From positions 387,899 through 451,898 of the forward strand of contig CBDCVL010000002.1 in assembly GCA_965223015.1 (NCBI GenBank): a stretch of 64,000 nt of DNA, read 5' to 3'. Of the stretch, positions 15,205 to 56,476 are shown in pieces. The position numbers were made by a program, and so were the translations under genes. Numbering within the stretch: the stretch's first letter is position 1; every line of letters begins with the position of its first letter. Under the pieces are notes generated by a model. That model did not search any database. It had not been told where the DNA came from and saw only the letters and a program-made list of their open reading frames with translations. This stretch comes from Vicinamibacterales bacterium (GTDB taxonomy: Bacteria > Acidobacteriota > Vicinamibacteria > Vicinamibacterales > UBA8438).

Positions 15205-17466
15205 CTAGCTGCCGGCGGCAGTGACGGTGTTGCCGAGCGCGTCGGTGGCCCGAATCACGAGAATATCGCGGCTGTCGGCTGCAATCGTGAGCTCGAATCG
15301 CTCGGTCCGCGAATCTGAAATCTGGTCGACCGGGTGAACGACCTGCCAGCGTTCCGGATCGAGCGAGTACTCGACGCGATGAATCGGAGAGTGTGTGTCG
15401 CTGACCGTGAAGGTCAGGAATAAATGCTCGCCTCGGAGCTCCGACGACGCCAGGTCGAGCGCCGGCGGAGAATTGTCGATATCGAACGGTGTGCTTTCCC
15501 GCGCGCCGGTCAGCGCCAGACCGGGAGGATTCGACACCGCATCGCTGGCGGTGATTTGGATGACATAGGTGCCGTCAGGTGCCGATGTCGTATCCCAGCT
15601 GAAGATCGGCTGCCGAAGCCCCAAGGTCAGCGGGTGCCATGTCGCCTCGCCCTCGGCACGATAGGACACGTCGTAGAGCAGCTCATCCTGATTCCCATCG
15701 AGTCCGGTCCAGGCGAACGTCTGTAGCCCCTTCCGGTAGATCTGCCGCCCTAGGGTGTTTTGTGGTGGGGCGGCCGCTCCGCTGGGGTTGGCGACTCGAG
15801 CTCCGGCGGCGTCTGCCAGGCCGGCGATCGGCGGGTCGCCACTTGGGAAGGGCTGTTGAAATACGATACCCGGCTCGTGAACAACCACCTCCGTAACCTG
15901 AGGTCGCAGGTTGCTTGGAAGATACGCTGTGGTGACCGAAAACAACTCCGGGCTCTCGCCGGTACCCACCAGTTCTGCCCGCCACTGGATGTAGCGAGCC
16001 TTCGGGCTTTCGACGCGCGTCCCAGTCGGGTCGGTGTACGGCTCGGACCACGGACTCCACGTGTCACTTGGCCTTTCCGTATTGCCGGTCCGTGTTGCCA
16101 GTCGAACCGTCGTGCCAGCGGGGAGTGTCGCCTGCCATCTGATAGTGCCCCAGGTCGAGACGGTCCCTGCATCACGTACGTCGGAGACGTACGTGCCGGT
16201 TGCGACACGATCTGCGGAGAGGCGGTAGACCTTTCCTGGATTGGCCGTGAGATAGTAGAAGCCTCCAGCAGCTGCCGCAACGAAGCGCGTCACCTGCTGC
16301 GCGGGCGCGCGCGTGAGCAGCACCACGCGCTTCGGGTCCTCCATGACCTGAAAAATCTTGCCACTCCCACCAGTCCCAACGAGAAGGGTGACGCTGGTTG
16401 GTTCGCTGTTGCCGCTCAGCTCGTTCCTTGCGACGAGCGCCACGTCGTACGGCGCATCCTCCGAGGACTCCCACACGGCGTCCCACACGCCATCAGGCGT
16501 GATCCGATAGACGGCACCCCCACCGTGTGCAGGTTGGGTCGGGGTTGGGCCGGTGACTCTTCCACGGTCGGCACTTCCGCCAGACGGTGTCGCCACTGCC
16601 GTCACGGTGGTTGATGTCGTAACCGTCACCGTTGCCGACGCGGATACCGCCGCCGGGCTGTTGGTCGGGCTCGCTGGTGTGCGTGGGGCAGACTCGGCAA
16701 CGGCCACCGCGTAGACCGTGCCATCGGGAGCAACCCGCAGCGCTCGGACCTCGCTGAATGGCGCGTCGAGCAGGACGAACCCGCGACCATCAGGCGTGAC
16801 GCGAAAGACTTGACCGGGCGAACTGGTACTCACCAGCAGGGTCTCGTCTGGACCGGCAGCGAGCGCAAGTGCGTGCGTCGTCTTGGTGTCGTAAAAGAGG
16901 GTGGACGTGCCGTCGGGTGACACTCGATAGACGCGGCCGGGACTGCCCGTGGCGACGTAGAGGTCACGCTCGCCGCTTGCGAGGGCGGGGCCGGTGGCGA
17001 GTGCCCATATGTATTCTTCTTCGGGATCAAACACGGTCTGGGCTTCGCCGTCGTCCGTGACACGGTACACCGCGCCGTGTGGTGACGTTCCGACATAGGC
17101 CTCGTCGTCGGTCGCTGCGATCGCATGAACGTTCAGTTCGCCCGCGTCAAACACCTCGCGTCCTGCTCCATCCGCCTCGGCCAGAAACACCTTGCCCGCG
17201 TTCCCGCTCCCAATCCACAGCCTGCCGGCCGCTTCGTCTGCGGTCCAGAGAAACGGCGCGGTTGTCTCATAGAGGACGTCGGTCTCCGGACCGAGGAGGA
17301 CGCGGCCAATCGCGTCGATCGAGACGTCGTAGACATCCCCACGGAGAAAGTCAGCCTGGGTTGACACTCGCCAGAAGACTGGCGACGCGCTCTCGCCAAT
17401 GACGATGAGTACGTTCACGGCGACCGCGGTCAGTCCCCAGCGGAAGCGGCCAGCCGAGTGCATCAT
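15205..17466 (-). CDS. large secreted protein: beta-propeller-like repeats + Ig-like C-terminal region, unknown function
   Basis: Track ORF 15205..17526. Start placed at ATG 17466, overlapping the upstream stop. Recurrent V(Y/F)RV.PDG strands. No catalytic motif recognised. Confidence 0.6.
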   Translation of the reverse strand: MMHSAGRFRWGLTAVAVNVLIVIGESASPVFWRVSTQADFLRGDVYDVSIDAIGRVLLGPETDVLYETTAPFLWTADEAAGRLWIGSGNAGKVFLAEADGAGREVFDAGELNVHAIAATDDEAYVGTSPHGAVYRVTDDGEAQTVFDPEEEYIWALATGPALASGERDLYVATGSPGRVYRVSPDGTSTLFYDTKTTHALALAAGPDETLLVSTSSPGQVFRVTPDGRGFVLLDAPFSEVRALRVAPDGTVYAVAVAESAPRTPASPTNSPAAVSASATVTVTTSTTVTAVATPSGGSADRGRVTGPTPTQPAHGGGAVYRITPDGVWDAVWESSEDAPYDVALVARNELSGNSEPTSVTLLVGTGGSGKIFQVMEDPKRVVLLTRAPAQQVTRFVAAAAGGFYYLTANPGKVYRLSADRVATGTYVSDVRDAGTVSTWGTIRWQATLPAGTTVRLATRTGNTERPSDTWSPWSEPYTDPTGTRVESPKARYIQWRAELVGTGESPELFSVTTAYLPSNLRPQVTEVVVHEPGIVFQQPFPSGDPPIAGLADAAGARVANPSGAAAPPQNTLGRQIYRKGLQTFAWTGLDGNQDELLYDVSYRAEGEATWHPLTLGLRQPIFSWDTTSAPDGTYVIQITASDAVSNPPGLALTGARESTPFDIDNSPPALDLASSELRGEHLFLTFTVSDTHSPIHRVEYSLDPERWQVVHPVDQISDSRTERFELTIAADSRDILVIRATDALGNTVTAAGS

Positions 17467-19304
17467 TCGATTGTGAAGCTCAGGCGGCGCGAACCAGAGA
17501 CCGCATGATCGCTGGGGAGCTCCCACTCGCCGAGAGTCGTCTCGCGCAGTTGACCAAGGCCGCCACTGCTTCGATTACTCTCGAGGACCGCCAACACCGA
17601 GCCCGGCAGGCCCGGCAGTTGCTCTCCGCGGTCAACCGCGCCGGTCTCGGCTCGAAGAAGCTTCACGTACAGACGACTGTTTCGGCGCACGCGGTTGAGG
17701 TTGCGGACCATCTGGTCGACGGTGTCGGCTGCTGCGACGGATCGGCCCTCTTGCCTTTCCTGGAGCGTAAGTGTCGCCGCGTCCGACACCTGGATGGTCA
17801 GCGCGCCCCTGGCATGATCGGGGATGGTGACCTGAAGCGTTTCCAGGAGCTCTGTGCCGCGGTAGGTCCGCGACACGATCTTGACCGGAATGACATCGCC
17901 AGCACGCGGCCGAACGGCATCGATCCACACACGCTCCAGGGTCGCCGTCAGAGGTTCCTCGAGGGCCTCGACCCTGACGTTGATGGCCTCGATCTTCACC
18001 GGCTCAAACTGGTTCGCCATCAGCGCGGCGATGGGGGTCGTCAGCGCCGAGGCCGCCGTGAAGGACGCCGTGTTACCCGTATAGATATCGCCGAACTTCA
18101 CGTCGCCGTAGTCTCGCACGCGGGCACTCCCGTCGACGATGTAGCTGCGGGGACCGAGCTCACGTGTCCAGTTGGTGAAGGTGTTCAGCACGCTCGTGTA
18201 TGCCAGCAGGGGCGTGAAGACCGGGTCGTCGATGATCTCGAAGCTGAACGTCTTCTCGATATCGCGGTCACGTTGCTCGAAGGTGACCCGGACAGGAATA
18301 AGGTCGGGTCCCGGTCCTATCGTTCCATACACTCCGGTAGGGCGATCTTGGTCGATCGTGCCGAGAACTTCGCCAATGGTGGCGATCTTGGACGAAAGAG
18401 CGAGGCTCGGCAGCAGTGTGGTGACGTGGGCCCTTGTCATCGGAAACTGTGACGGACCGAGGTTGTAGAAGGGATGACCAAACGCATAGACCCGGTCGCC
18501 CTCCACCATTGTCACCGTGCCTGTCCCAGCCATCGTGAGATCGCCACTGATTAGACTGACGCCCAAGGGGTCGCCCGGCTGCAGAGGCTGTCCCGCCACC
18601 GCGAGCTGGGCTTCCGCTGCGAGTGGGCCCCCGATGGTCGTTACCACTCCACCGGTGTTGAGCGCGGTAGACCAGAGGGAATACAGCTCTGGGCTGAAGC
18701 CGCCGAGGATGAGCGGCGTCGCGATCGGCCTGAGGAGAGTTCCCAGGCGGCCGCCCTCCAGTAGCGAGAGGCCCAGCGTGTGAACGTCAGCCGGCTCCGC
18801 CGCGAACGCCGTTGCCCCGCCGAACGAACCTCGTACCGTCTCTGCGAGGAATTGCTCCGTGAGGGGAAACTGCCATGGAGGGACCCGCCGCGCAAGGCGG
18901 TTCGCCTCTCGGTCGGTCGCAACCATCTCCTCGATCGGTGTGATTCCGGCGATTGCGTCCTTCGAGAATGAGCCGAGGGAGTACGAGATCGCCCCGACAA
19001 GACGGTCACCAATATAGACGGGACTTCCGCTCATCCCCTGAATGACACCGGTGTGAGCCAAGGGGCCGCCATTCAGTCTCGCGACGATGACGTTTCGCTG
19101 CGGTCCCATGACGTTCGTCAGGACGCCCAGCACCTCGACATTGAATTCTTCACGCTCGGAGCCCTGAAAGACAGTGACGCCGACGCCCGTCATCCCGGCC
19201 CGCACCTCGTCCAGCGGCATTCGGGCTGTTTCCGCCGGGAGCTGGACGAAGCTGAGGGGGGTCAGAAAAGCGAAGACGAGAAGCGCGAAGGCTCTCTTGG
19301 TCAC
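17463..19304 (-). CDS. S55 (SpoIVB-like) serine peptidase family protein, secreted
   Basis: Track ORF 17463..19346 (TTG). The GTG 19304 start gives signal peptide TKRAFALLVFAFLTPLSF. GMSGSPVY serine motif. Confidence 0.7.
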   Translation of the reverse strand: MTKRAFALLVFAFLTPLSFVQLPAETARMPLDEVRAGMTGVGVTVFQGSEREEFNVEVLGVLTNVMGPQRNVIVARLNGGPLAHTGVIQGMSGSPVYIGDRLVGAISYSLGSFSKDAIAGITPIEEMVATDREANRLARRVPPWQFPLTEQFLAETVRGSFGGATAFAAEPADVHTLGLSLLEGGRLGTLLRPIATPLILGGFSPELYSLWSTALNTGGVVTTIGGPLAAEAQLAVAGQPLQPGDPLGVSLISGDLTMAGTGTVTMVEGDRVYAFGHPFYNLGPSQFPMTRAHVTTLLPSLALSSKIATIGEVLGTIDQDRPTGVYGTIGPGPDLIPVRVTFEQRDRDIEKTFSFEIIDDPVFTPLLAYTSVLNTFTNWTRELGPRSYIVDGSARVRDYGDVKFGDIYTGNTASFTAASALTTPIAALMANQFEPVKIEAINVRVEALEEPLTATLERVWIDAVRPRAGDVIPVKIVSRTYRGTELLETLQVTIPDHARGALTIQVSDAATLTLQERQEGRSVAAADTVDQMVRNLNRVRRNSRLYVKLLRAETGAVDRGEQLPGLPGSVLAVLESNRSSGGLGQLRETTLGEWELPSDHAVSGSRRLSFTIE

Positions 19305-19374
19305 GATGGTAGTATCGGTCCCTTCACCGCAAGATATCGGACCCAATGGTTGATGGTCAAGGAGAAGGCCGGGA

Positions 19375-19404
19375 TTGACATCGCCGCGAAACGTTTGGTA
19401 CCGT
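19375..19404 (+). promoter_or_regulatory. candidate sigma-70 promoter of the aromatic-operon leader (TTGACA-18-TACCGT)
   Basis: Consensus -35 read directly. The -10 keeps only the T1, A2 and T6 positions. Confidence 0.3.
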
Positions 19405-19443
19405 ATTGGTCTTACTTATGTGTCTTCAGATCTCCAGCTGATC

Positions 19444-19545
19444 GTGCGCTCGGCGTATTGGCCTACCGTGCCGTACCGGTGGTACCGCCACTGGTTTAGC
19501 AGCAGCGCTGGAGAGGCTGTCATGTGGGCCATGGGGAACGCCTGA
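19444..19545 (+). CDS. candidate attenuation leader peptide, 33 aa, 4 Trp + 3 Tyr + 1 Phe
   Basis: Own translation (M)RSAYWPTVPYRWYRHWFSSSAGEAVMWAMGNA. Too short for the ORF track. Followed by terminator/antiterminator elements. Start codon uncertain and no SD. Confidence 0.5.
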   Translation: MRSAYWPTVPYRWYRHWFSSSAGEAVMWAMGNA

Positions 19546-19599
19546 AGACGTGCGGTAGCCCCACAGAGACATCGACAGAGAACAGTAAGCCTCTTCAGC
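19507..19599 (+). promoter_or_regulatory. candidate antiterminator pairing (19507-19518 with 19588-19599)
   Basis: GCTGGAGAGGCT is complementary to AGCCTCTTCAGC (11 WC + 1 G.U). This pairing is mutually exclusive with the terminator stem. Confidence 0.45.
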
Positions 19600-19630
19600 C
19601 TCGACCGGCTGAGGGGGCTTTTTCTATTTT
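19588..19630 (+). terminator. rho-independent terminator/attenuator 13 nt upstream of aroDE
   Basis: AGCCUCUUCAGCC-UCGACC-GGCUGAGGGGGCU (13 bp including 2 G.U) followed by UUUUUCUAUUUU. Confidence 0.75.
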
Positions 19631-19643
19631 GAGCAGAACCACC

Positions 19644-21134
19644 ATGGACGCAAAGCTGTGCGCGACGGTCACGGGTGCCACGACAGAGGAACTTCGTGCG
19701 AATCGGGATCAGGCGGCGGGCGCCGACGGCGCCGACATGGTGGAGCTCAGAGTCGACTATGCGGATGAGATCGATCTGGACGGAGTCCTTGCCGACCGGC
19801 GCTGCCCGGTCGTGGTGACATGCCGCCCGGTGTGGGAAGGTGGTCGGTTCCACGGGTCAGAGGACGAACGCCACCGTCTTCTCAGACGGGCGCTCGATCT
19901 TGGGGCGGAGTACGTCGACGTTGAGTGGCGGGCCGGTTTCCACGATCTCGTCGCCGGTGACGACCGGAAGCGAGTCGTGCTGTCGGCGCACGACTTCGAC
20001 GGGGTTCCCGGTGACCTCGAGGAGCAAGTACGCGCCATGCGGTCGACAGGCGCCGATGTGATCAAGGTCGCGGTGCGGGTGAGTGCACTGTCTGAACTCA
20101 TACCGTTGCGCGACATGGGCAGGCGAGCCAGGCAACGCGGAGAGATGCAGATCATGATCGGGATGGGCGCCGCCGGTATCCCGTCGAGAGTGCTCCCGGA
20201 CCACTTCGGCTCAAGTTGGACCTATGCCGGACAGGGAGTCGCGCCAGGACAAGTCGAGCTATCTCGGATGCTCGGCGAGTTTCGAGTTCGCTCGGTCGAC
20301 GCCGCGTCGGAGTTGTTCGGCGTCCTTGGCTCTCCGCTGGCCCATTCACTGTCTCCGGCCATGCACAATGCCGGGTTCGCAGAGACCGGCCGTGATGCCG
20401 TCTACGTTCCGCTCGAGGCGGCGGATGTAGACGATTTTGCAAGGTTTGCCGACGCGTTCGGCGTGCAAGGGGTCAGCGTGACCGCGCCGTTCAAGGAGCA
20501 GGTGGTCAACAGAGTGACGGAAGTCGACCCCCTCAGCGCTCGCGTTGGCGCGGTCAATACATTGCGGCTCGACCCGTCCGGATGGCGGGGCGTGAACACT
20601 GACGTGCCAGGATTCCTCGCCCCTCTCGACGGGAGGGTTCCGCTCACGGGATGCCGGGCCACCATCTTGGGCGCCGGTGGCGCGGCCCGCGGCGTTGCAG
20701 TCGCCTTGCGGGATGCGGGTGCGAGCGTCACGATCGCGGCACGGCATTCTGCGCGCGCGCGCTCGGTGGCGGCGTTGGTTGATGGGGAGACCGTCGAGAT
20801 GCCCCCGCAGCCCGGGACGTGGGAGCTGCTCGTGAACACGACACCGATTGGCACCTATCCGGACGTGGAAACGAGCCCCATGGCCGGGGCCGACTTCGGC
20901 GGCACGCTGGTATACGACCTGGTCTACAACCCACGCATGACGCGTCTCCTCGCCGATGCCGCGGCAGCCGGGTGCGACACAATCGGCGGGTTGGAGATGC
21001 TTGTCGCTCAGGCCGAGCGTCAGTTCGTCTGGTGGACAGGTGTGGCGCCAGGCAGTCAGACGTTTCGGCAGGCCGCCGAGCGGCGCCTGAAGGAGATGGA
21101 AGAGATGGGTGCATCGTCGGCCCTGCCACAGTGA
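19644..21134 (+). CDS. aroDE: bifunctional 3-dehydroquinate dehydratase (type I) / shikimate dehydrogenase
   Basis: Track ORF 19524..21134, start moved to ATG 19644. The N-terminal half is AroD-like (MVELRVDY, DVIKVAV). The C-terminal half is AroE-like (SLSPAMHNAGF, ILGAGGAARG). Confidence 0.85.
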   Translation: MDAKLCATVTGATTEELRANRDQAAGADGADMVELRVDYADEIDLDGVLADRRCPVVVTCRPVWEGGRFHGSEDERHRLLRRALDLGAEYVDVEWRAGFHDLVAGDDRKRVVLSAHDFDGVPGDLEEQVRAMRSTGADVIKVAVRVSALSELIPLRDMGRRARQRGEMQIMIGMGAAGIPSRVLPDHFGSSWTYAGQGVAPGQVELSRMLGEFRVRSVDAASELFGVLGSPLAHSLSPAMHNAGFAETGRDAVYVPLEAADVDDFARFADAFGVQGVSVTAPFKEQVVNRVTEVDPLSARVGAVNTLRLDPSGWRGVNTDVPGFLAPLDGRVPLTGCRATILGAGGAARGVAVALRDAGASVTIAARHSARARSVAALVDGETVEMPPQPGTWELLVNTTPIGTYPDVETSPMAGADFGGTLVYDLVYNPRMTRLLADAAAAGCDTIGGLEMLVAQAERQFVWWTGVAPGSQTFRQAAERRLKEMEEMGASSALPQ

Positions 21135-21153
21135 CGTCGTGATGTGAGGACGT

Positions 21154-22662
21154 ATGGATAGCGAGACCACCTTCGAAGAGTTTGCCGCCCTCGCCACGCA
21201 GGGCACCTTCGTGCCGGTGTGCAAAGAGGTCATGGCAGACATGCTCACTCCGGTGTCGGCCTTCCTCAAGGTTGCGGAGCAGGCGGAGCACGCCTTCTTG
21301 TTCGAGAGTGTGGAGGGGGGTGAGCGACTGGCCCGGTATTCGTTTCTCGGAAAGGACCCGTTCATGGTTCTCCGGGCCCGGAACGGGCAATGCATCGTCG
21401 ATCAGGCAGGCCAGCGGCAGGAGCGAGATGACCCGTTTTTCGATGTCTTGCGTGAGGTGATGGGACGGTTCACGTCTCCAGCGGTGGACGGACTGCCGCG
21501 TTTCACCGGTGGCGCGGTTGGGTTTCTCGGATACGAGTCAGCGCTCTGGTTCGAGCCGTCGCTCCAAGGATGCTGGAAGCGTTTCGACAAGACGACGCCT
21601 GACGACACAGACGACGCCGGCTTCATGCTGTTCGATACGGTCCTCGCGTTCGATCATCTGAAACATCGGATCTTGGTTATCGCGAATGCGGAGGTCGGCG
21701 AAGGCGTCGACCTTCGTGCGCAGTACGAGCTGGCGCAGGCCAAGATCAGATTCCTCGAGCGAGAGCTCGGCCGTGGTCTGTCGGACAGTTCCCAGGAGGA
21801 AGGCGGGAGTCTCGAATGGCGGTCGAACACCGCGCGCGCGACCTATGAGGAGTCGGTCGCAAAGGCACAGCGATACATCAAGGCTGGGGACATCTATCAG
21901 GTGGTCTTGTCTCAGCGATTCGAGACGGATGTCTCCGTGGACCCGTTCACGGTGTATCGGGCGCTTCGGTATGTGAACCCGTCGCCCTATATGTATTTCA
22001 TGCGACTAGGCGGGGTGTCGATCGTGGGGTCGTCCCCGGAGATGCTGGTGCGGGTCGAGGGGGACCGGGCCGAGACCCACCCGATCGCCGGAACTCGTCC
22101 CCGCGGGGAGAACGAGGTTCGGGACGAACAGCTGGCTGAGGAGCTCCGGGAGAACGAGAAAGAACGGGCCGAGCATGTCATGCTGGTCGACCTCGGGCGG
22201 AACGACCTCGGAAGGGTCTGCCAATACGGAACGGTGCGGGTGCCGCAGTATATGGGGCTCGAACGGTACTCGCATGTCATGCATCTCGTGTCGCGGGTCG
22301 TGGGGCGACTCGACGCTGAGCATGACCGCCTAGACGCGCTGGCAGCTTGCTTCCCCGCGGGGACCGTCTCGGGTGCGCCGAAGATCCGGGCGATGGAGAT
22401 CATCGCGGAGCTCGAGCCGACGACCCGCGGCATCTATTCCGGTGCGGTTGGGTATCTCGACTTCGCCGGGCATCTTGACTGCTGCATCACCATTCGCACG
22501 ATCGTGATGCGCGACGGCAAGGCGTACGTCCAGGCCGGGGCCGGGATCGTGGCCGACTCCGATCCCGCCGCCGAGTACCAGGAGACGCGCGACAAGGCCT
22601 CGGCGCTGATCCGGGCGCTTGAGATGGCGCAGAGCGGGCGAGGTCCTCGTGGTGTTGTCTAG
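21154..22662 (+). CDS. trpE: anthranilate synthase component I
   Basis: 502-aa ORF. GGAVGFLGYE, GTVSGAPKIRAMEII, GIYSGAVGYLDF. Confidence 0.95.
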   Translation: MDSETTFEEFAALATQGTFVPVCKEVMADMLTPVSAFLKVAEQAEHAFLFESVEGGERLARYSFLGKDPFMVLRARNGQCIVDQAGQRQERDDPFFDVLREVMGRFTSPAVDGLPRFTGGAVGFLGYESALWFEPSLQGCWKRFDKTTPDDTDDAGFMLFDTVLAFDHLKHRILVIANAEVGEGVDLRAQYELAQAKIRFLERELGRGLSDSSQEEGGSLEWRSNTARATYEESVAKAQRYIKAGDIYQVVLSQRFETDVSVDPFTVYRALRYVNPSPYMYFMRLGGVSIVGSSPEMLVRVEGDRAETHPIAGTRPRGENEVRDEQLAEELRENEKERAEHVMLVDLGRNDLGRVCQYGTVRVPQYMGLERYSHVMHLVSRVVGRLDAEHDRLDALAACFPAGTVSGAPKIRAMEIIAELEPTTRGIYSGAVGYLDFAGHLDCCITIRTIVMRDGKAYVQAGAGIVADSDPAAEYQETRDKASALIRALEMAQSGRGPRGVV

Positions 22663-22822
22663 TGTCCCGAGCATGAAACACCTAGCCATTCGGCCGGCGG
22701 TGCATCCGGTCTGGCGGCGTTGCGAATCGCTCGAATATTCCCGATATTCTCGCTCTTCACGCCTGGCCAGCCCGGCGCATCATCGCCCTCGGTGGCAAGG
22801 TGTTTCATACTCGGGACACTAG
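22659..22822 (+). repeat. 164-bp foldback (MITE-like) repeat, family R1, copy 1
   Basis: CTAG...CTAG termini, 25-nt terminal inverted arms (24/25 complementary), and a conserved core GGCGTTGCGAATCGCTCGAATATTCCCGATATTCTCGCTCTTC. The first CTAG contains the trpE TAG stop. Confidence 0.85.
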
Positions 22823-22844
22823 CAGGGGAGATCGACGGCAGACA

Positions 22845-23411
22845 ATGGTACTCGTCATCGACAACTACGATTCGTTCACGTACAACCTCGTCCAGTATCT
22901 GGGTGAGCTTGGGGCCGACGTGCTCGTGAAGCGAAACGATGAGCTTTCGCTCGAGACCGTGGAGGAGATTCAGCCTGACCGGATCGTGATCTCGCCGGGT
23001 CCGGGGCGACCGGAAGCGGCGGGTGTCAGCGTGGGGGTGGTTCGGCGATATGGGTCCTCCATTCCGATACTTGGCGTCTGCCTCGGGCATCAGGCGATCG
23101 GATATGCGTTCGGCGCCACGATCGTGTCGGCGCCGGTCCTGGTGCACGGGAAGTCGTCGGAGATTCAGCACGACGAAAGAGGAGTCTTCAGGGGGATTTC
23201 GAGCCCGTTTAGGGCCGGCCGGTATCACTCGTTGGTCGTCTCGGCAGAGGGGTGGCCGGAGGACCTTGAAGTCTCTGCTCGCACGATCGACGGCAGCACG
23301 ATCATGGGGATTCGCCACCGAGAGTGGCCGGTGCAGGGTGTGCAGTTTCACCCCGAGAGTGTGTTGACCGACGTTGGGAAGACTCTGCTCGGGAACTTTC
23401 TGGAGAGCTGA
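22845..23411 (+). CDS. trpG: anthranilate synthase component II (glutamine amidotransferase)
   Basis: Start at ATG 22845 (MVLVIDNYDSFTYNL). The track start 22800 lies inside the repeat. GVCLGHQAI catalytic Cys, FHPES. Confidence 0.9.
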   Translation: MVLVIDNYDSFTYNLVQYLGELGADVLVKRNDELSLETVEEIQPDRIVISPGPGRPEAAGVSVGVVRRYGSSIPILGVCLGHQAIGYAFGATIVSAPVLVHGKSSEIQHDERGVFRGISSPFRAGRYHSLVVSAEGWPEDLEVSARTIDGSTIMGIRHREWPVQGVQFHPESVLTDVGKTLLGNFLES

Positions 23412-24428
23412 GTGTTTGCTGAACTGATCGAGAAACTGCGTCGACGCCGAGACCTGACGGAGGCCGAGGCGTCCGAAGCGATGGTCGAGATCATGGAAGG
23501 AAGAGCGACCTCGGCGCAGATCGCCGGCATGCTGATTGGCCTGTCGATGAAGGGTGAGAAGCCCGAGGAGATCGTGGGACTTGCGCGAACGATGCGGGCG
23601 CACGCCGCGCCGATGTCACGAAGCTTTGATGATGTGTTCGACACCTGTGGGACCGGCGGCGATCGCCTCCACACGTTCAACGTCTCGTCGCTTGCGGCTC
23701 TGACGATTTCCGCGTGCGGTGTGCGAGTGGCAAAGCACGGGAACCGGTCCGTCTCGAGCAGCTGTGGTAGCGCCGACCTTTTTGAGGCGTTGGGCGTCGA
23801 CCTGTCGGCATCCGTCGGGACGGTTGAACGCTGCTTGGCAGATGTCGGCATCGCCTTCTTCTTTGCGCCAACGTTTCATCCGTCGATGCGCCACGCTGCG
23901 CAGACTCGCCGTGACCTGGGCGTCCGGACAGCGTTCAATCTACTTGGGCCGTTGACGAACCCCGCCGGTGCGCGCCGGCAGATAGTGGGCGTGCCCGGCC
24001 CACAGCATACCGACCTGCTGGCTCGGGCGCTCGGACGTCTCGGGTCCGAGTGCGTGTGGGTTGTGCACGGAGCTGACGGGCTCGACGAGATTTCGATGAG
24101 CGGGTATACGAAGGTCACCGAATGGCGGCGCGGAATGGTACGGACGTTCTACACCCACCCCTCCGACTTCGGTGTCGAGCCAACGTCGCTTGATGTGCTC
24201 CGGGTCTCGGGCCGTGACGAGAGTCTTGCGGTCGCTCGGAGTGTCCTCGCCGGTGAGAGTGGGCCGGCGCGTGAGTTCGTCTTGGTCAACGCCGCGGCCG
24301 GGCTGGTAGTCGAGGGGCGTGCGGCGTCCCTTGTCGAGGGGATGACGCTGGCGTCGGCAGCGCTAGACGAGGGTCGGGTCGCCCAGAAACTCGAAGCACT
24401 GGCTGCCTGTTCTCGGGGGGCGGCATGA
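23412..24428 (+). CDS. trpD: anthranilate phosphoribosyltransferase
   Basis: 338-aa ORF. DTCGTGGD, NLLGPLTNPA. GTG start immediately after the trpG stop. Confidence 0.9.
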   Translation: MFAELIEKLRRRRDLTEAEASEAMVEIMEGRATSAQIAGMLIGLSMKGEKPEEIVGLARTMRAHAAPMSRSFDDVFDTCGTGGDRLHTFNVSSLAALTISACGVRVAKHGNRSVSSSCGSADLFEALGVDLSASVGTVERCLADVGIAFFFAPTFHPSMRHAAQTRRDLGVRTAFNLLGPLTNPAGARRQIVGVPGPQHTDLLARALGRLGSECVWVVHGADGLDEISMSGYTKVTEWRRGMVRTFYTHPSDFGVEPTSLDVLRVSGRDESLAVARSVLAGESGPAREFVLVNAAAGLVVEGRAASLVEGMTLASAALDEGRVAQKLEALAACSRGAA

Positions 24429-25282
24429 TGAGCCGGTCGGCCGCGACAGGGCCGAGCGTGGACGCCGACCGACCCGACCTGCTGGCTGCGATTCTGGCGG
24501 CGACCCAGGAGTCGGTGTCCGTGGCGAAGCGCCGGCGACCTCTGGCAGCGCTCGAGCGGGCGGCGGCCGCTCGGACCCCGCGCGGTGTAGCGTTCCGAGA
24601 CGCGCTGGTCTCGACGACGTGTCTGCCGGTGATCGCAGAGTGCAAGCGGCGCTCACCATCGAGAGGAGTCCTTCGCGCAGACTACCGTCCCGCCGACATC
24701 GCCATGGCGTACGAGCGCGCAGGCGCGGCGGCGGTGTCCGTGCTGACCGAACCGGCCTTCTTTGACGGGGCGCTGTCGGACCTCGAGGCCGTTCGGGACG
24801 CCGTCAGCATTCCGATTCTGAGAAAGGACTTCATCGTCGCGGAGTATCAGCTTGTTGAGGCGCGGGCGGCGGGTGCCGATGCGGTGCTCCTGATCGTCGC
24901 GGCTCTGGACGATGCGGCCCTGGCACACCTCCTACGAGTTGCGACATCGAGTGGGTTGGCTGCACTTGTCGAAGTGCACGACGACGCGGAGTTGGCCCGG
25001 GCGCTCGAAGCCGGCGCGGACCTGGTCGGCGTCAACAACCGCAATCTGCGGACGCTTGACGTCGATCTCGCCGCATCGTTCTCGGTGATCGGTGGGGTGC
25101 CCAAAGGCGGCGTGGCAGTGGCGGAGAGCGGAATCAGGACCGGGGGCGATCTCGAGGCATTGCGTCGCGCAGGATATGACGCATTCCTCGTTGGTGAATC
25201 TTTGATGAGTGAAGCGGACCCGGGCACTGCCCTGGAGGAACTTCTTCGGACCGGAGGGTCGGTCCCGCGGGGCCGTCGATGA
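24425..25282 (+). CDS. trpC: indole-3-glycerol-phosphate synthase
   Basis: 285-aa ORF. VIAECKRRSPSRG, VGVNNRNLRTL. ATGA overlap with trpD. Confidence 0.9.
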   Translation: MMSRSAATGPSVDADRPDLLAAILAATQESVSVAKRRRPLAALERAAAARTPRGVAFRDALVSTTCLPVIAECKRRSPSRGVLRADYRPADIAMAYERAGAAAVSVLTEPAFFDGALSDLEAVRDAVSIPILRKDFIVAEYQLVEARAAGADAVLLIVAALDDAALAHLLRVATSSGLAALVEVHDDAELARALEAGADLVGVNNRNLRTLDVDLAASFSVIGGVPKGGVAVAESGIRTGGDLEALRRAGYDAFLVGESLMSEADPGTALEELLRTGGSVPRGRR

Positions 25283-25944
25283 GCGTGAAGGTCAAGGTGT
25301 GTGGCATCACGCGGGCGGCTGACGCGCTCCTTGCAAGCGACCTCGGCGCGTCGGCGGTCGGATTTGTGTTCTGGGAGAAGAGCCCGAGGTCCATCGACCC
25401 GGAGAGCGCGCGAGCGATCGTGTCTGTGCTTCCGCCCGATGTTGCCGCTGTTGGCGTGTTTGTCGATCCGCCCACACAGTATCTTGCCGACGTCGTCTCG
25501 CACGTTGGCCTTGCCGCGGTCCAGCTGCATGGCGACGAGACGCCGGAGTTCTGCCGCGACCTGCCGTATCGTGTGATGAAGTCGGTGTCCGTGAGAGATG
25601 CCGCCGAGGACGAGCGGCTGACGCGTTGGCCCGAGTCGATCATGGTATTGCTTGACGCAGCAGACCCGGTTCGAAAGGGTGGTACTGGTCAGACGATCGA
25701 CTGGGGGATCGCCGCACGTGTGTCGGCGCGACGCCGAGTGTTTCTCGCGGGAGGACTGACGGCGAGCAACGTCGGCGAAGCGGTGAAGGGGGTGCGCCCC
25801 TACGCGGTCGACGTCTCGTCGGGACTGGAGGCCAGTCCTGGGGTCAAGGCGCCGGACCTGATGCAGGCCTTCTTCGAGGCGGTCTCGGCGACAGGCGGGG
25901 CGGCAGAAGAGAGAAGACGATGGGCAATGGAGAACCACCCGTGA
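25279..25944 (+). CDS. trpF: phosphoribosylanthranilate isomerase
   Basis: 221-aa ORF. VKVCGIT, VQLHGDE. ATGA overlap with trpC. Confidence 0.9.
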
Positions 25945-27164
25945 CGGGACCGACCTTCGGTCAGCGTGACCCGGACGCCCGCGGGTACTTCGGACCGTAC
26001 GGGGGGAGGTTCGTTCCGGAGACGTTGGTCGAGCCGATTGAGGCGCTCGAGGAGGCCTACCGGCAGGCACGGAAGGATCCGGCCTTCACGGCCGAGCTCA
26101 CAACCCTACTGACGCACTACGTAGGTCGGCCAACCCCGATCTACGAAGCGCAGCGTCTCACCAACGCGGTGGGAGGGGCGCGCCTGTTCCTGAAACGAGA
26201 AGATCTCGCTCACACCGGCGCGCACAAGATCAACAATGCGCTCGGCCAAGGGCTCCTCGCGGTACGGATGGGAAAGCGTCGCGTCGTGGCTGAGACCGGC
26301 GCGGGGCAGCATGGGGTTGCCACGGCCACCGTGTGTGCGCTCCTGGGTCTGCAGTGTGAGGTGTACATGGGCACGGAGGACATGCGCCGGCAGGCGCCGA
26401 ATGTCTTCCGCATGAGACTTCTGGGCGCGAAGGTGACCGGTGTTGACTCGGGCAGTCGGACACTCAAGGACGCCATTAACGAGGCGATGCGCGACTGGGT
26501 GACGAACGTGTCCGACACATACTATCTGTTGGGCTCGGTTCTCGGGCCTCATCCGTATCCGCTGATGGTGCGTGAGTTCCAGTCGGTCATCGGACGTGAG
26601 GCCCGAAATCAAATACTGGCGTTGATCGGTGAGCTTCCAGCGGCCGTTGTCGCGTGTGTCGGCGGTGGAAGCAATGCACTCGGCATCTTCGACGGATTCG
26701 TGGACGACGAAGGTGTCAAACTCGTCGGCGTCGAGGCTGGTGGAGAGGCGCTGACGGCTGGCAAGCATGCGGCACGGTTTGCGACGGGTGTTGCCGGTGT
26801 TCTCCAGGGCACGCGCAGCTACATTCTGCAGGATGCGGACGGGAACATCGAGCTCACGCATTCGATCTCTGCTGGGTTGGACTACGCCGCGGTGGGGCCC
26901 GAGCATGCGTGGCTGCGCGACATGGGTCGTGCGGAGTATACGAGCGTGTCCGATCGCCAGGCTTTGGAGGCGTTTCAGACGTTGTGTCGTCTCGAAGGCA
27001 TTCTGCCCGCCCTCGAATCAGCCCATGCTGTGGCCCATGCGCAGGTTCTCTCGAAGGAAATCGGCCCGCAGGGTGCCATCCTCGTCAACTTGTCCGGGCG
27101 TGGCGACAAGGATGTTCCAGCGGTTCAGGGCGTCCTGCTCGACGAGTCGGACCGGGAGTCGTGA
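25920..27164 (+). CDS. trpB: tryptophan synthase beta chain
   Basis: 414-aa ORF. PLP-lysine motif [17 protein letters not shown]. Confidence 0.95.
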
Positions 27165-27169
27165 CCAAG

Positions 27170-27967
27170 ATGTCCCGTATCGACGACACGTTCGCGCGGC
27201 TCCGCTCTTCGGGGCAGACCGGACTCGTGACATACGTCACCGCTGGGGATCCTGACGCGGAGCGGTCGGCCGCGGTTCTCCGGACACTCGACAAGTCTGG
27301 GGCCGACATCCTGGAGGTTGGTATTCCGTTTTCGGACCCGCTGGCCGATGGACCGGCGATCCAACGCGCCTCTGAGCGAGCCCTGGCTGCAGGGACGACC
27401 CTCCGTTCGAGTCTCGAGCTCATCGGGGCGATTCGAACGAGCGTGTCGGCTCCCGTCGTAGTATTCAGCTACGCGAACCCAGTCTTGGCGATGGGCTTGG
27501 ACAGCTTCATGGGCCGGGCGTCAGATGTCGGTGTCGATGGTGTTCTGGTGCTGGACCTGCCGATCGAGGAGGCAGAAGATTTGCGCAATGCCGCGGTAGC
27601 GGTCGGTATTGACCCGATCTTTCTGTTGAGCCCCACGACGACCGAGGCGAGGATTCGGAGAGCGGCGGAGTTGGGTCGGGGGTTCCTGTACGCCATATCG
27701 CGGTTGGGTGTGACGGGCGAGCGCGATACGATTGCAGAAGGTGCCCGCGAAATGGTCGACCGGATTCGCAGCGTGACCGACCGTCCAGTCGCGCTTGGCT
27801 TTGGCATCTCACGACCCGAGCAGGTAGCCGAAGTCGGACAATGGGCTGACGCAGCGGTCGTGGGCAGTGGGCTGGTCAATCGGATTGCGGCCTCGGCGGC
27901 CGGCGACAGTCTTGAGGATGACGTGCGCAACTACGTTCGGTGGCTGCGGAGCGGGCTAGTGCAATGA
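27170..27967 (+). CDS. trpA: tryptophan synthase alpha chain
   Basis: Track ORF 26654..27967 is an out-of-context 5' extension. The real start is ATG 27170 (MSRIDDTFARL..YVTAGDPD, LEVGIPFSDPLADGP). Confidence 0.9.
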   Translation: MSRIDDTFARLRSSGQTGLVTYVTAGDPDAERSAAVLRTLDKSGADILEVGIPFSDPLADGPAIQRASERALAAGTTLRSSLELIGAIRTSVSAPVVVFSYANPVLAMGLDSFMGRASDVGVDGVLVLDLPIEEAEDLRNAAVAVGIDPIFLLSPTTTEARIRRAAELGRGFLYAISRLGVTGERDTIAEGAREMVDRIRSVTDRPVALGFGISRPEQVAEVGQWADAAVVGSGLVNRIAASAAGDSLEDDVRNYVRWLRSGLVQ

Positions 27968-27979
27968 ACTGATGAACCA

Positions 27980-28312
27980 ATGAGCGATCAGTCGACAAAC
28001 AGACCGGGTGCGGGGCAGGTCGGGCCAAGCGGATTGACCGAGGACATGAAATCGCTGCGCGAGCAGATCGACCGCCTGGACGAGCAGATCGTGAGGCTGT
28101 TGAACGAACGGGCCGAACACGCGTTACAGCTTGGCGCGCTGAAGAGTGATGCCCGGATGGACACCTATCAGCCCGATCGTGAAATCGCAGTGCTTGAGCA
28201 CGCTCGTGAGGTGAACGCCGGCCCGCTCGAGGGGGACGCTATCACACGCCTGTTCGAACGAATCATCGATGAGAACCGCCGTCTGGAGCGTTTATCCGAA
28301 GGGGACGACTGA
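27980..28312 (+). CDS. chorismate mutase (monofunctional AroQ type)
   Basis: 110-aa ORF. LREQIDRLDEQIVRLLNERAEHALQLGALK helical CM_2 pattern. Confidence 0.8.
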   Translation: MSDQSTNRPGAGQVGPSGLTEDMKSLREQIDRLDEQIVRLLNERAEHALQLGALKSDARMDTYQPDREIAVLEHAREVNAGPLEGDAITRLFERIIDENRRLERLSEGDD

Positions 28313-28357
28313 TACACCGGAGCGCGACGGTCCGGTTGAGGGTATGGAGGCAGAAGC

Positions 28358-29407
28358 ATGGTTGTGGTCATGGAAGAGCGCGCATCAGAAGATCAGATTC
28401 AGCATGTCATCGCGACGCTGGTCGAGAAGGAGTTCGATGTGCACCGGTCCACAGGGGCATTGAGGACCGTCCTGGGCGCCGTCGGCGGCCATCGAGGCTT
28501 CGACACCCGACTCATTGAGGTGATGGGCGGTGTGCACGAAGTGCTGCGGATTACAGAGCCGTATAAGCTCGCCAGTCGAACCTTCAAGCCGGAACGGACG
28601 ATCGTTTCGGTGGGAGACCTGCGGATCGGAGGTGACGAAGTCATCGTGATGGCCGGTCCCTGCTCGGCGGAGAACGAGGCGCAGGTAGAGGCCGCGGCCG
28701 CGGCGGTGAGTAAGGCCGGCGCAAAGGTGTTCCGGGGCGGCGCCTTCAAACCGCGCAGCTCGCCTTACAGCTTCCAGGGGCTTGGCGAAGAAGGGCTACG
28801 CCTGTTACGTGACGCCGCCGATCATCACAATCTCAAGCTCGTGTCAGAGGTCATGGACGTGAGTCAGATAGGCCTGCTGACGAAGTACGCCGACATCCTG
28901 CAGGTCGGTGCACGGAATATGCAGAACTATACGCTGCTCCGTGAGCTCGGGAAGATCAGGGTGCCCGTTCTCCTCAAGCGTGGTATCTCTGCCACGATCG
29001 AGGAGTGGCTGCTGTCTGCCGAGTATGTGCTGTCGGGCGGCAACTCCGATGTCGTCTTGTGCGAACGCGGAATCCGAACGTTCGAGACCTACACTCGAAA
29101 TACGTTGGACATCTCCGCCATCCCGGTCATTCACAAGCTCAGTCATCTGCCGATCGTGGCCGATCCGAGCCATGGCATCGGTATCCGGGACAAAGTCGCT
29201 CCGATGGCCCGTGCGGCCGTGGCGGCGGGTGCCGACGGTTTGATCATCGAGGTTCACCCCGACCCAGACCACGCGCTGAGTGACGGGGCTCAGTCGCTCT
29301 TCCCTGAGCAGTTTGACCGTCTGATGGCGGAGGTACGGATCATTGCACCGGCGATCGGCCGAAGCGTGTGTGTCGAGCCAGTGCCCCGACGAGGGTGGGG
29401 GACGTAG
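28358..29407 (+). CDS. 3-deoxy-7-phosphoheptulonate (DAHP) synthase, class I-beta with N-terminal ACT/ferredoxin-like regulatory domain
   Basis: 349-aa ORF. ~70-aa N-terminal domain, then [24 protein letters not shown]. Confidence 0.85.
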
Positions 29408-29440
29408 AGGTCCTCAGAGAACCCCCGGTGTCATCACGCG

Positions 29441-30358
29441 ATGTCAGATAACCGCCAGCTTCCGGTCATTCAACCAGGATCCACGCAAGGTGCGCCTCCG
29501 GTCTTCGAGAAGGTCGCGATTGTCGGTCTTGGTCTGATCGGGGGGTCGATCGCGCTGGCTGCGCGAGAGGTATGGCCCAGCGGTCTGGTCATCGGTGTCG
29601 ACAATGCCGATGTGCTCGAGCGGGCGATGGTCCATCACGCCATCGACGTTGCGGCTGACGACCCCGTCGTGATGTCTGAGGCCGACCTCGTCATCTTGGC
29701 TGCCCCGGTTGCACAGAACATCGAGTTGCTGGATGACCTCGCGGAGCACGTGCCTGGTTCGGCGATTGTGACCGATGTGGGTAGTACGAAGCGGGAAGTC
29801 GTCGAACAGGCGCGACGATTGCCCTCCCGGTTGACATTCATCGGTGGTCATCCGCTGGGCGGAGCGCCTCAGGGCGGAATTGATTATGCCAGAGCGGACC
29901 TGTTCAAGGGGAGACCGTGGCTGTTCACCCCGACCGACGATAGCCAGGCAGCGCCACTTGAACGGCTCCGGGCGTTTGCGACGGCGCTCGGTGCCGAACC
30001 GCACGTGATGACGGCGACAGAGCACGACCGGCTGTTGGCGTATGTATCGCACCTCCCTCAGCTCGCAGCTTCTGCGTTGATGCGAGTGGTTGGAGATGAA
30101 GCAGGGCAGGCCGGGTTGGCGCTCACGGGGAGAGGCCTGGCCGACACGACCCGTCTCGCCGCGAGCCCGGCAACCATCTGGCGTGACATCTGCTCGACAA
30201 ACACCGACCAAATCCGACGGGCGCTAGATGGTCTGATTGCCGAACTCGAAGGGCTCAGAGATGGTCTTGACGAAGCTGAGGCGATCGACGAGGTCTTCGC
30301 CGCCGCGGCGGCCTGGCGTGCCGCGCTTCCAGGCAGACGTAGGGACCCTCAGGGGTAG
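29441..30358 (+). CDS. tyrA: prephenate dehydrogenase
   Basis: 305-aa ORF. Rossmann VAIVGLGLIGGS, GGHPLGG. Confidence 0.85.
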   Translation: MSDNRQLPVIQPGSTQGAPPVFEKVAIVGLGLIGGSIALAAREVWPSGLVIGVDNADVLERAMVHHAIDVAADDPVVMSEADLVILAAPVAQNIELLDDLAEHVPGSAIVTDVGSTKREVVEQARRLPSRLTFIGGHPLGGAPQGGIDYARADLFKGRPWLFTPTDDSQAAPLERLRAFATALGAEPHVMTATEHDRLLAYVSHLPQLAASALMRVVGDEAGQAGLALTGRGLADTTRLAASPATIWRDICSTNTDQIRRALDGLIAELEGLRDGLDEAEAIDEVFAAAAAWRAALPGRRRDPQG

Positions 30359-56312: not shown

Positions 56313-56476
56313 CTAGTGTCCCGAGTACGAAGTACCTAGCCATTCGGCCGGCGCTGCATCCCGCCTGTCGGCGTTGCGAATCGCTCGAATATTCCCGATA
56401 TTCTCGCTCTTCGAGCCTGGCCAGTCGGGCGCATCGCCATCCTCGATGACAAGGTATTTCATACTCGGAACACTAG
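56313..56476 (+). repeat. 164-bp foldback (MITE-like) repeat, family R1, copy 2
   Basis: Same length and CTAG termini as copy 1. Arms 22/25 complementary (3 transitions). The last CTAG contains the hspR TAG stop (minus strand). Confidence 0.85.

Follow-up and report, generated by a model that had tools for sequence, protein, structure and literature searches.

A probable ribosome-mediated attenuator in front of the aromatic supraoperon of a Vicinamibacterales bacterium

What decides whether the aromatic supraoperon of a Vicinamibacterales bacterium is transcribed? In the 64,000-nucleotide (nt) stretch of contig CBDCVL010000002.1 analysed here (the window), this operon begins with aroDE at position 19644, and the region in front of it holds a short open reading frame (ORF) with many aromatic codons, an intrinsic terminator and a segment that could compete with the terminator for one of its arms. 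An initial annotation had interpreted this arrangement as ribosome-mediated attenuation. We read and translated the leader region directly and compared it with the corresponding region of related genomes. The ORF, both helices and an in-frame start recur in the relatives, and this comparative evidence supports the proposed logic: the region is very probably a ribosome-mediated (leader-peptide) transcription attenuator of the aromatic supraoperon. Its parts are as follows.

19375-19380, plus strand: -35 hexamer TTGACA of the leader and operon promoter; ATTGACA is invariant in alignments A2 and A4.
19396-19404, plus strand: extended -10 element TGgTACCGT, with TG at 19396-19397, the hexamer at 19399-19404 and an 18-nt spacer.
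19420-19545, plus strand: leader ORF, 41 codons plus TGA, reading (V/M)SSDLQLIVRSAYWPTVPYRWYRHWFSSSAGEAVMWAMGNA.
19456-19497, plus strand: sensing codons, YWPTVPYRWYRHWF, with TGG at 19459, 19480 and 19492, TAT or TAC at 19456, 19474 and 19483, and TTT at 19495.
19507-19518, plus strand: 5' arm of the antiterminator (segment 2), GCTGGAGAGGCT, which encodes A-G-E-A and starts 15 nt after the last sensing TGG.
19532-19563, plus strand: spacer hairpin UGGGG...CCCCA in minimum-free-energy folds, inside the antiterminator and holding the displaced stop codon TGA 19543.
19587-19600, plus strand: shared arm (segment 3), AAGCCTCTTCAGCC, whose partner is segment 2 or segment 4.
19607-19630, plus strand: 3' arm of the terminator (segment 4), GGCTGAGGGGGCTT at 19607-19620, and T-tract TTTTCTATTTT to 19630.
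19644-30358, plus strand: operon of aroDE, trpE, trpG, trpD, trpC, trpF, trpB, trpA and the genes for chorismate mutase, DAHP synthase and TyrA, assigned with Pfam.

In the mechanism that we propose, a sigma-70-type promoter (TTGACA, 18 nt, TGgTACCGT) would start transcription at about 19411, and the leader ORF would begin a few nucleotides further on, without a Shine-Dalgarno (SD) sequence, and carry the Trp and Tyr codons at 19456-19497. A shortage of charged tRNA-Trp, and probably also of charged tRNA-Tyr, would stall the first ribosome on these codons and leave the arm at 19507-19518 exposed. The distance of 15 nt from the last sensing TGG (19492) to this arm fits the reach of a stalled ribosome's leading edge. 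As 19587-19600 emerges from RNA polymerase it would pair with the exposed arm to form the antiterminator, the terminator would be blocked, and the genes from aroDE to tyrA would be transcribed. With ample amino acids the ribosome would pass the arm and stop, in most relatives, 6 or 12 nt beyond it, and would thus cover the arm during synthesis of segments 3 and 4; the terminator at 19587-19620 with its T-tract would then release a transcript of approximately 215 nt. The ribosome itself would serve as the anti-antiterminator in this three-segment design, because no conserved 1:2 hairpin is present.

The frame from GTG 19444 to TGA 19543-19545 translates to VRSAYWPTVPYRWYRHWFSSSAGEAVMWAMGNA, and the same frame is open from 19354 and includes GTG 19420. 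Four Trp and three Tyr codons are found among the 41 codons. The initial annotation had pointed to a stretch with seven aromatic residues out of 14, and this is indeed unusual: a run of at least seven Trp, Tyr or Phe per 14 residues occurs a single time in the six-frame translation of the window, at the leader, and ten block-wise dinucleotide shuffles gave 0, 0, 0, 1, 0, 0, 0, 0, 0 and 0 such stretches. The Trp count alone is unexceptional, as the window contains 33 chance stretches elsewhere with at least three Trp in eight residues and the leader run has two.

To place the leader in a wider context, a collection of species-representative genomes was scanned. AroDE homologues are abundant, and the scan gave 80 loci, nearly all of them labelled Vicinamibacterales, Vicinamibacteria or Acidobacteriota. 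With nhmmer, the leader DNA of the window matched directly upstream of aroDE in about 30 loci, down to E = 4e-17. A census of Trp runs was made on the 79 loci that have enough upstream sequence. A short ORF with at least two Trp in seven residues was found in 75 of these and one with at least three Trp in 56, while dinucleotide shuffles gave 27.5% and 1.4%, and the opposite strand 15/79 and 1/79, respectively. At the Vicinamibacterales loci the Trp-run ORF is preceded by a conserved promoter and followed, ahead of aroDE, by an intrinsic terminator. Alignment showed an invariant ATTGACA, an extended -10 element TGnTAnnGT, a TGGTGG(TGG)TAY block, a conserved GCTGGAGGGGCTGTCAnnTAG block and the terminator GCCTCTTCAGCC...GGTTGAAGAGGCTTTTTT. 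The runs read in frame in relatives include YRWWYHWF, RWWWFHRF, YWWYYAF, GWWWRYVF, WRWYW, WWYW, WWWY and YWYWYY. The leaders contain 2-4 UGG, and 8-30 nt separate the run from the antiterminator arm, a spacing on the scale of a ribosome footprint. In most relatives the ORF extends across the arm, and 54 of 74 loci have their stop codon 6 or 12 nt past it. Both Tyr codons are used across the family (TAT 64 times, TAC 49 times), as expected if selection acts on the meaning of the codon. The in-frame start, the fixed stop and the mixture of Tyr codons argue for a translated reading frame over an RNA motif. The aromatic codon run, the terminator and the 12-nt complement in the ORF are thus all conserved, with helices that co-vary, in the alignment of relatives that the initial annotation had proposed as a check. 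Four loci (L002, L027, L043 and L072) lack a run with at least two Trp codons; L002, for instance, reads QWRYCDPF. The terminator is kept in at least three of them, and they may represent decayed or re-purposed leaders.

The promoter and the start codon are held in a tight relation. Of 75 loci, 68 have a TTGAC-N17/18-TAnnnT promoter, which takes the extended form TGnTAnnnT in 65 of them. The first in-frame start codon is located at a median of 11 nt past the -10 element, mostly 9-16 nt, and is ATG in 44 loci, GTG in 16 and TTG in eight. An ATG occurs 4-25 nt past the -10 element in 43 loci, and in 41 of these the first such ATG shares the frame of the Trp run (p = 1e-17). Transcription usually starts about 7 nt past the -10 element. 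Together with the median position of the start codon, this leaves a 5' untranslated region of zero to a few nucleotides; in the window, promoter geometry predicts a transcription start at about 19410-19412. The leader mRNA is therefore predicted to be leaderless, or nearly so, and probably is. The initial annotation had counted the lack of an SD sequence as a weak point. No SD sequence was found ahead of the leader ORF when the sequence was read directly, and its lack is explained by the probably leaderless mRNA. The start codon itself needed correction: the initial annotation had begun the ORF at GTG 19444, whereas the homologous start lies at 19418-19420, and GTG 19420, which it had named as the alternative, is the in-frame start at this position. 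The aroDE gene is likewise without an obvious SD sequence in 19631-19643 (GAGCAGAACCACCATG), and SD-independent initiation may be common in this organism.

The two competing helices were then considered. The terminator consists of 14 base pairs (bp) with a loop at 19601-19606 and a folding energy of -24.8 kcal/mol, and it ends 13 nt short of the aroDE ATG at 19644, as had been described. The 12-nt complement that had been noticed inside the ORF, 3' of the aromatic codons, also held: GCTGGAGAGGCT at 19507-19518 pairs with AGCCTCTTCAGC at 19588-19599 through 11 Watson-Crick pairs and one G.U pair, and RNAduplex gave this duplex -23.4 kcal/mol (z = -5.2 against shuffles). The same test was applied locus by locus to the 3' part of the ORF and the 5' arm of the terminator. 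The best segment 2:3 duplex averages -17.3 kcal/mol, compared with -11.2 kcal/mol for shuffles and -9.3 kcal/mol for an equally long upstream control (Wilcoxon p = 6e-13). In a MAFFT alignment of 74 sequences (A3), 82.9% of the antiterminator is paired, with 35 double-change cells, and sliding one side lowers pairing to 40-54%; for the terminator, pairing reaches 93% and double-change cells number 61. Changes in one arm are matched in the other from lineage to lineage, CAGCC/GCTGG becoming CAACC/GTTGG and CTCCAG/CTGGAG becoming CTCCGG/CCGGAG, and GCCCCTTCGGC with GCCGAAGGGGC is another lineage-specific pair. RNAalifold predicted the terminator alone from the full alignment, and the core of segment 2:3 alone when segment 4 was removed; the run on the truncated alignment is not fitted to any proposed structure.

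No conserved 1:2 partner was found upstream of the arm: RNAduplex compared with shuffles gave a mean z of -0.44 and a median of -0.11, with scattered positions. This agrees with the failure of the initial annotation to define a convincing anti-antiterminator. A pairing in the window between TCTCCAGC at 19433-19440 and GCTGGAGA at 19507-19514 was dropped, since it is unconserved even in the subclade. The heptamer CTGAAGA, which had been put forward as a second complement of the terminator arm, is real and lies at 19542-19548, one nucleotide further on than first given; it is present only in L086 and L081 and was treated as incidental. A small hairpin recurs weakly but systematically in relatives at the position of the spacer hairpin (mean z = -0.76, p = 1e-10). 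As this structural bias is weak, we make no claim for a pause hairpin between the stop codon and segment 3.

Constrained folding had also been proposed as a check. Folding the whole leader to equilibrium under ribosome masks is uninformative on a kinetic switch. Instead, the nascent RNA was folded only as far as segment 3, with the bases under the ribosome footprint masked, and the antiterminator was called when at least 8 bp formed. A ribosome placed at the first Trp codon allowed the antiterminator to form in 72 of 74 loci, the window included; one placed at the stop codon blocked it in 61 of 74.

The amino acids to which the leader responds were judged from the composition of a ten-codon window around the run. 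Trp makes up 28% of these codons, Tyr 14% and Phe 4.5%, against 0.9%, 1.8% and 2.9% in the proteins of the operon. The Trp enrichment is partly built into the selection of the ORFs; Tyr and Phe served there only to break ties, so any bias in the Tyr figure should be slight. At least one Tyr codon is present in 70 of 74 leaders, and Phe is absent from the sensing codons in 45 of 74. The mixed Trp, Tyr and Phe sensing put forward by the initial annotation thus stands for Trp and Tyr, and Phe sensing is unsupported for the family as a whole. Pfam searches of the operon detected tyrA and no prephenate dehydratase, which matches Trp and Tyr codons without Phe enrichment. The family looks like a Trp-plus-Tyr sensor, the Phe codon of the window is probably incidental, and from the codons we infer regulation by the supply of Trp and Tyr.

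Several observations weigh against this reading, most of them in the window itself. The sensing run of the window has two non-adjacent Trp codons, where three are usual in relatives. When no ribosome was placed on the nascent RNA the antiterminator still formed in 49 of 74 loci, which means that the default without translation would be read-through, unlike in E. coli trp. Equilibrium folding of the complete leader always gave the terminator, whichever mask was applied; this is expected for a kinetic switch and adds no positive support. The position of the stop codon is a further difficulty. The TAG that usually follows the arm is TGG, a Trp codon, at 19525-19527 in the subclade of the window (L081-L086), and in this subclade the stop wanders to 24-36 nt beyond the arm through further single-base insertions or deletions; in the window it is 24 nt beyond, inside the hairpin at 19532-19563. 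In the static footprint model a ribosome at the displaced stop leaves the antiterminator unblocked in four of six subclade members, namely the window and three of its five closest relatives. The "off" state is therefore less clear in the window; kinetic coupling, or steric hindrance from a ribosome in the enclosed loop, are possibilities. Finally, the homologous ATG at 19418-19420 is put out of frame in the window by a 1-nt deletion and would give MCLQISS*. The sequence at the start is ATGTGTCT, and GTG 19420 is the sole in-frame start at the homologous position. An in-frame ATG is present at this position in all six of the closest relatives, including L086 (99% AroDE identity), whose leader begins in frame with ATGGTGGCT. 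With the ATG frameshifted and a GTG two bases on, the leader of the window may be poorly translated, unless the sequence contains a base-calling error. The one-base deletion lies at 19418-19423, is seen in comparison with L086 and all other close relatives, and could be a homopolymer assembly error.

These observations raise the question of whether the attenuator of the window is a decayed relic, with constitutive read-through or constitutive termination. The deletion relative to L086 and all close relatives, the stop 24 nt beyond the arm and the unblocked antiterminator in the footprint model speak for decay. On the other hand, an in-frame GTG lies 2 nt from the lost ATG, nothing has been lost from the Trp and Tyr codons, the two arms or the terminator, which match L086 exactly, and the displaced stop is common to the whole subclade (77-99% AroDE identity), indicating that it is tolerated or functional. 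The deletion may also be an artefact, as single-base homopolymer deletions are a common assembly error. We regard decay as unlikely.

The other explanations concern the family as a whole, and each accounts for less of the comparative evidence. A T-box or another ligand- or tRNA-binding riboswitch could control the terminator, with the Trp codons incidental: a terminator with a competing upstream pairing is the layout of a T-box too, and GGTGGTACCGC at 19478-19488 resembles the T-box motif, GGUGGUACCGCG. However, about 100 nt separate this sequence from the terminator downstream of it, so that it falls outside the antiterminator, and in relatives it varies by whole codons (WWYW, WRWYW, WWWY, YWYWYY), in frame with the promoter-adjacent start. 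No conserved structure resembling Stem I or a specifier was seen upstream. Rfam gave no match to any family in the leader, T-box (RF00230), other riboswitches and Trp_leader (RF00513) included, either at the gathering score in the search of the window or at E values up to 10 for 19250-19700. A riboswitch is thus largely refuted and extremely improbable. Alternatively, the UGG-rich segment might be bound by a TRAP-like protein or some other Trp-activated factor, with the ORF untranslated. Repeated UGG could form a binding array, no SD sequence precedes the ORF, and the Bacillus aromatic supraoperon is under TRAP control. The TRAP of Bacillus subtilis binds 11 (G/U)AG repeats in the trp leader; the region in the window contains only eight scattered (G/U)AG triplets, the longest chain at 2-3 nt spacing being one, whereas a TRAP-regulated leader has nine to eleven such triplets, 2-3 nt apart and overlapping the antiterminator. 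Just 2-4 UGG are present, with the run at a ribosome-footprint distance from the arm, and a protein-binding site would require neither the in-frame start (41/43) nor a stop fixed 6 or 12 nt past the arm. Binding by a protein is accordingly a highly improbable explanation.

It has further to be asked whether the ORF encodes a genuine small protein, or whether the terminated leader RNA or its peptide acts in trans, aroDE being expressed by read-through or from its own promoter. The C-terminus of the peptide is conserved (xGEA / EEA / GGAV), and an RNA and a peptide that derive from an attenuator and act in trans, rnTrpL and peTrpL, are documented in Sinorhizobium meliloti (PMC6614838, PMC7298713). 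The N-terminal two-thirds of the Vicinamibacterales peptide are unconserved, however, and the conserved C-terminus is explained by a constraint on the nucleotides of the antiterminator arm, an arm that changes in step with that of the terminator. The terminator and aroDE are only 13-60 nt apart in most loci, and no promoter was found between them. We consider these possibilities very unlikely as replacements for attenuation, with which a role in trans could coexist.

How the element relates to known attenuators can be described by comparison. In its proposed mechanism it is a classical trp-type attenuator, although by sequence it belongs to no curated family. With E. coli trpL (RF00513) it shares a leader ORF with Trp codons, a terminator directly before the first gene of the biosynthetic operon, and an antiterminator that has one arm in common with this terminator; the choice between the two helices would be made, as in E. 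coli, by where the ribosome stands. It has no sequence or covariance-model similarity to trpL. The E. coli ORF has 14 codons, is led by an SD sequence and stops before the antiterminator arm, whereas the ORF of the window has 41 codons and is probably leaderless, and the Vicinamibacterales ORF runs through the arm. E. coli trp also has a 1:2 pause and anti-antiterminator hairpin, a feature that is typical, though not universal, in attenuators; none is conserved in the Vicinamibacterales leader. Also unlike E. coli trp, Tyr codons stand beside the Trp codons, and the operon includes aroDE, DAHP synthase, chorismate mutase and tyrA. In this last respect the closer parallel is the aromatic supraoperon of B. 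subtilis, where trp genes lie within a larger operon with aro genes and tyrA, and the leader chooses between terminator and antiterminator. There, sensing is through TRAP, while in Vicinamibacterales the sensor is an ORF, predicted to be translated, which heads the whole supraoperon and has no TRAP repeats.

Codons for several end products of a branched pathway are mixed in the ilvGMEDA, thr and ilvB leaders of enterobacteria, and the Vicinamibacterales leader resembles these in mixing codons for more than one end product. Mycobacteria have leaderless Cys-rich regulatory upstream ORFs, which are similar as short regulatory ORFs on a leaderless transcript, the leaderless status of the Vicinamibacterales mRNA being predicted only. 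We know of no mixed Trp/Tyr leader. The trp attenuators of actinobacteria (Corynebacterium, Streptomyces) are classical ones, predicted or verified (Seliverstov et al. 2005, PMC1262725). They too occur in GC-rich genomes and have double or triple UGG, GC-rich terminators with poly-U, and conserved complementary triples common to antiterminator and terminator (PMC1262725). The arm motif in these is GGCC-rGCy-GGCC, and in Vicinamibacterales, another phylum, it is GCCTCTTCAGCC / GCTGGAGGGGC, which is unrelated in sequence; the mixed Trp/Tyr codons and the supraoperon are further differences. S. meliloti trpL is also a ribosome-dependent Trp attenuator of a soil bacterium that yields a short terminated leader RNA (PMC6614838, PMC7298713). 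It controls the single gene trpE(G) and has documented roles in trans, while the leader of the window precedes 11 genes.

A literature search, which did not take in the 2010 Mol Biol survey of Lopatovskaya et al., yielded no description of a mixed Trp/Tyr leader, nor of such an element in Acidobacteria or Vicinamibacteria. According to a survey of 2010, attenuators in Acidobacteria were essentially unannotated, and at that time Proteobacteria and Actinobacteria were the only phyla with known leader peptides. A broader proposal can be made tentatively: the leaders may form a family-wide variant, and the first leader-peptide attenuator family in Acidobacteriota, in which a leaderless mRNA couples ribosome and polymerase through 70S initiation at the 5' end, no 1:2 hairpin is present, the ribosome is the sole anti-antiterminator, and Trp and Tyr codons integrate two end products to control the common pathway along with the trp branch and tyrA. 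We put this forward as a possibility of somewhat less than even standing.

Regulation in Acidobacteriota is almost unstudied, and the element provides a well-supported, order-wide example. The mechanism is a textbook one, and what is gained is breadth and variation in design, not a new principle. The design differs in its probably leaderless start, the lack of a 1:2 hairpin, the Trp/Tyr codons and the control of a whole supraoperon, and such a compact arrangement of three segments lends itself to testing how much of the E. coli paradigm (SD sequence, pause hairpin, anti-antiterminator) attenuation needs. It also suggests joint control by Trp and Tyr over entry into the shikimate pathway in abundant soil bacteria. 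In practice, the signature of promoter, Trp/Tyr run and GCTGGAGGGGC / GCCTCTTCAGCC / GGTTGAAGAGGC can be used for annotating metagenome-assembled genomes and for correcting gene calls.

The operon downstream comprises 11 co-directional genes. Pfam identified aroDE as an aroD-aroE fusion and confirmed the DAHP synthase, chorismate mutase, trp pathway and tyrA genes named in the initial annotation. No strong internal terminator was found within 19644-30358, and from the common direction and short gaps we infer a single transcription unit. An element resembling a miniature inverted-repeat transposable element (MITE) lies in the trpE-trpG spacer at 22659-22822, with inverted-repeat arms of 30 nt that are 93% complementary and 104 nt between them. 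As trpG probably starts at ATG 22846, this MITE-like element would fill most of a gap of roughly 183 nt. A second copy is found 34 kb away, at about 56316-56473, with related arms and equal spacing, where no chance matches are expected.

On the other side of the leader, a divergent promoter-like site (TTGACC, 18-nt spacer, TATCTT) is located on the minus strand at 19331-19360, in a block conserved among relatives, and would serve the upstream gene for an S55-peptidase-like protein. The site falls inside the mechanically called 627-residue ORF at 17463-19346, for which the calls in relatives are 585 residues; the true start of the S55-peptidase-like gene is therefore probably further in.

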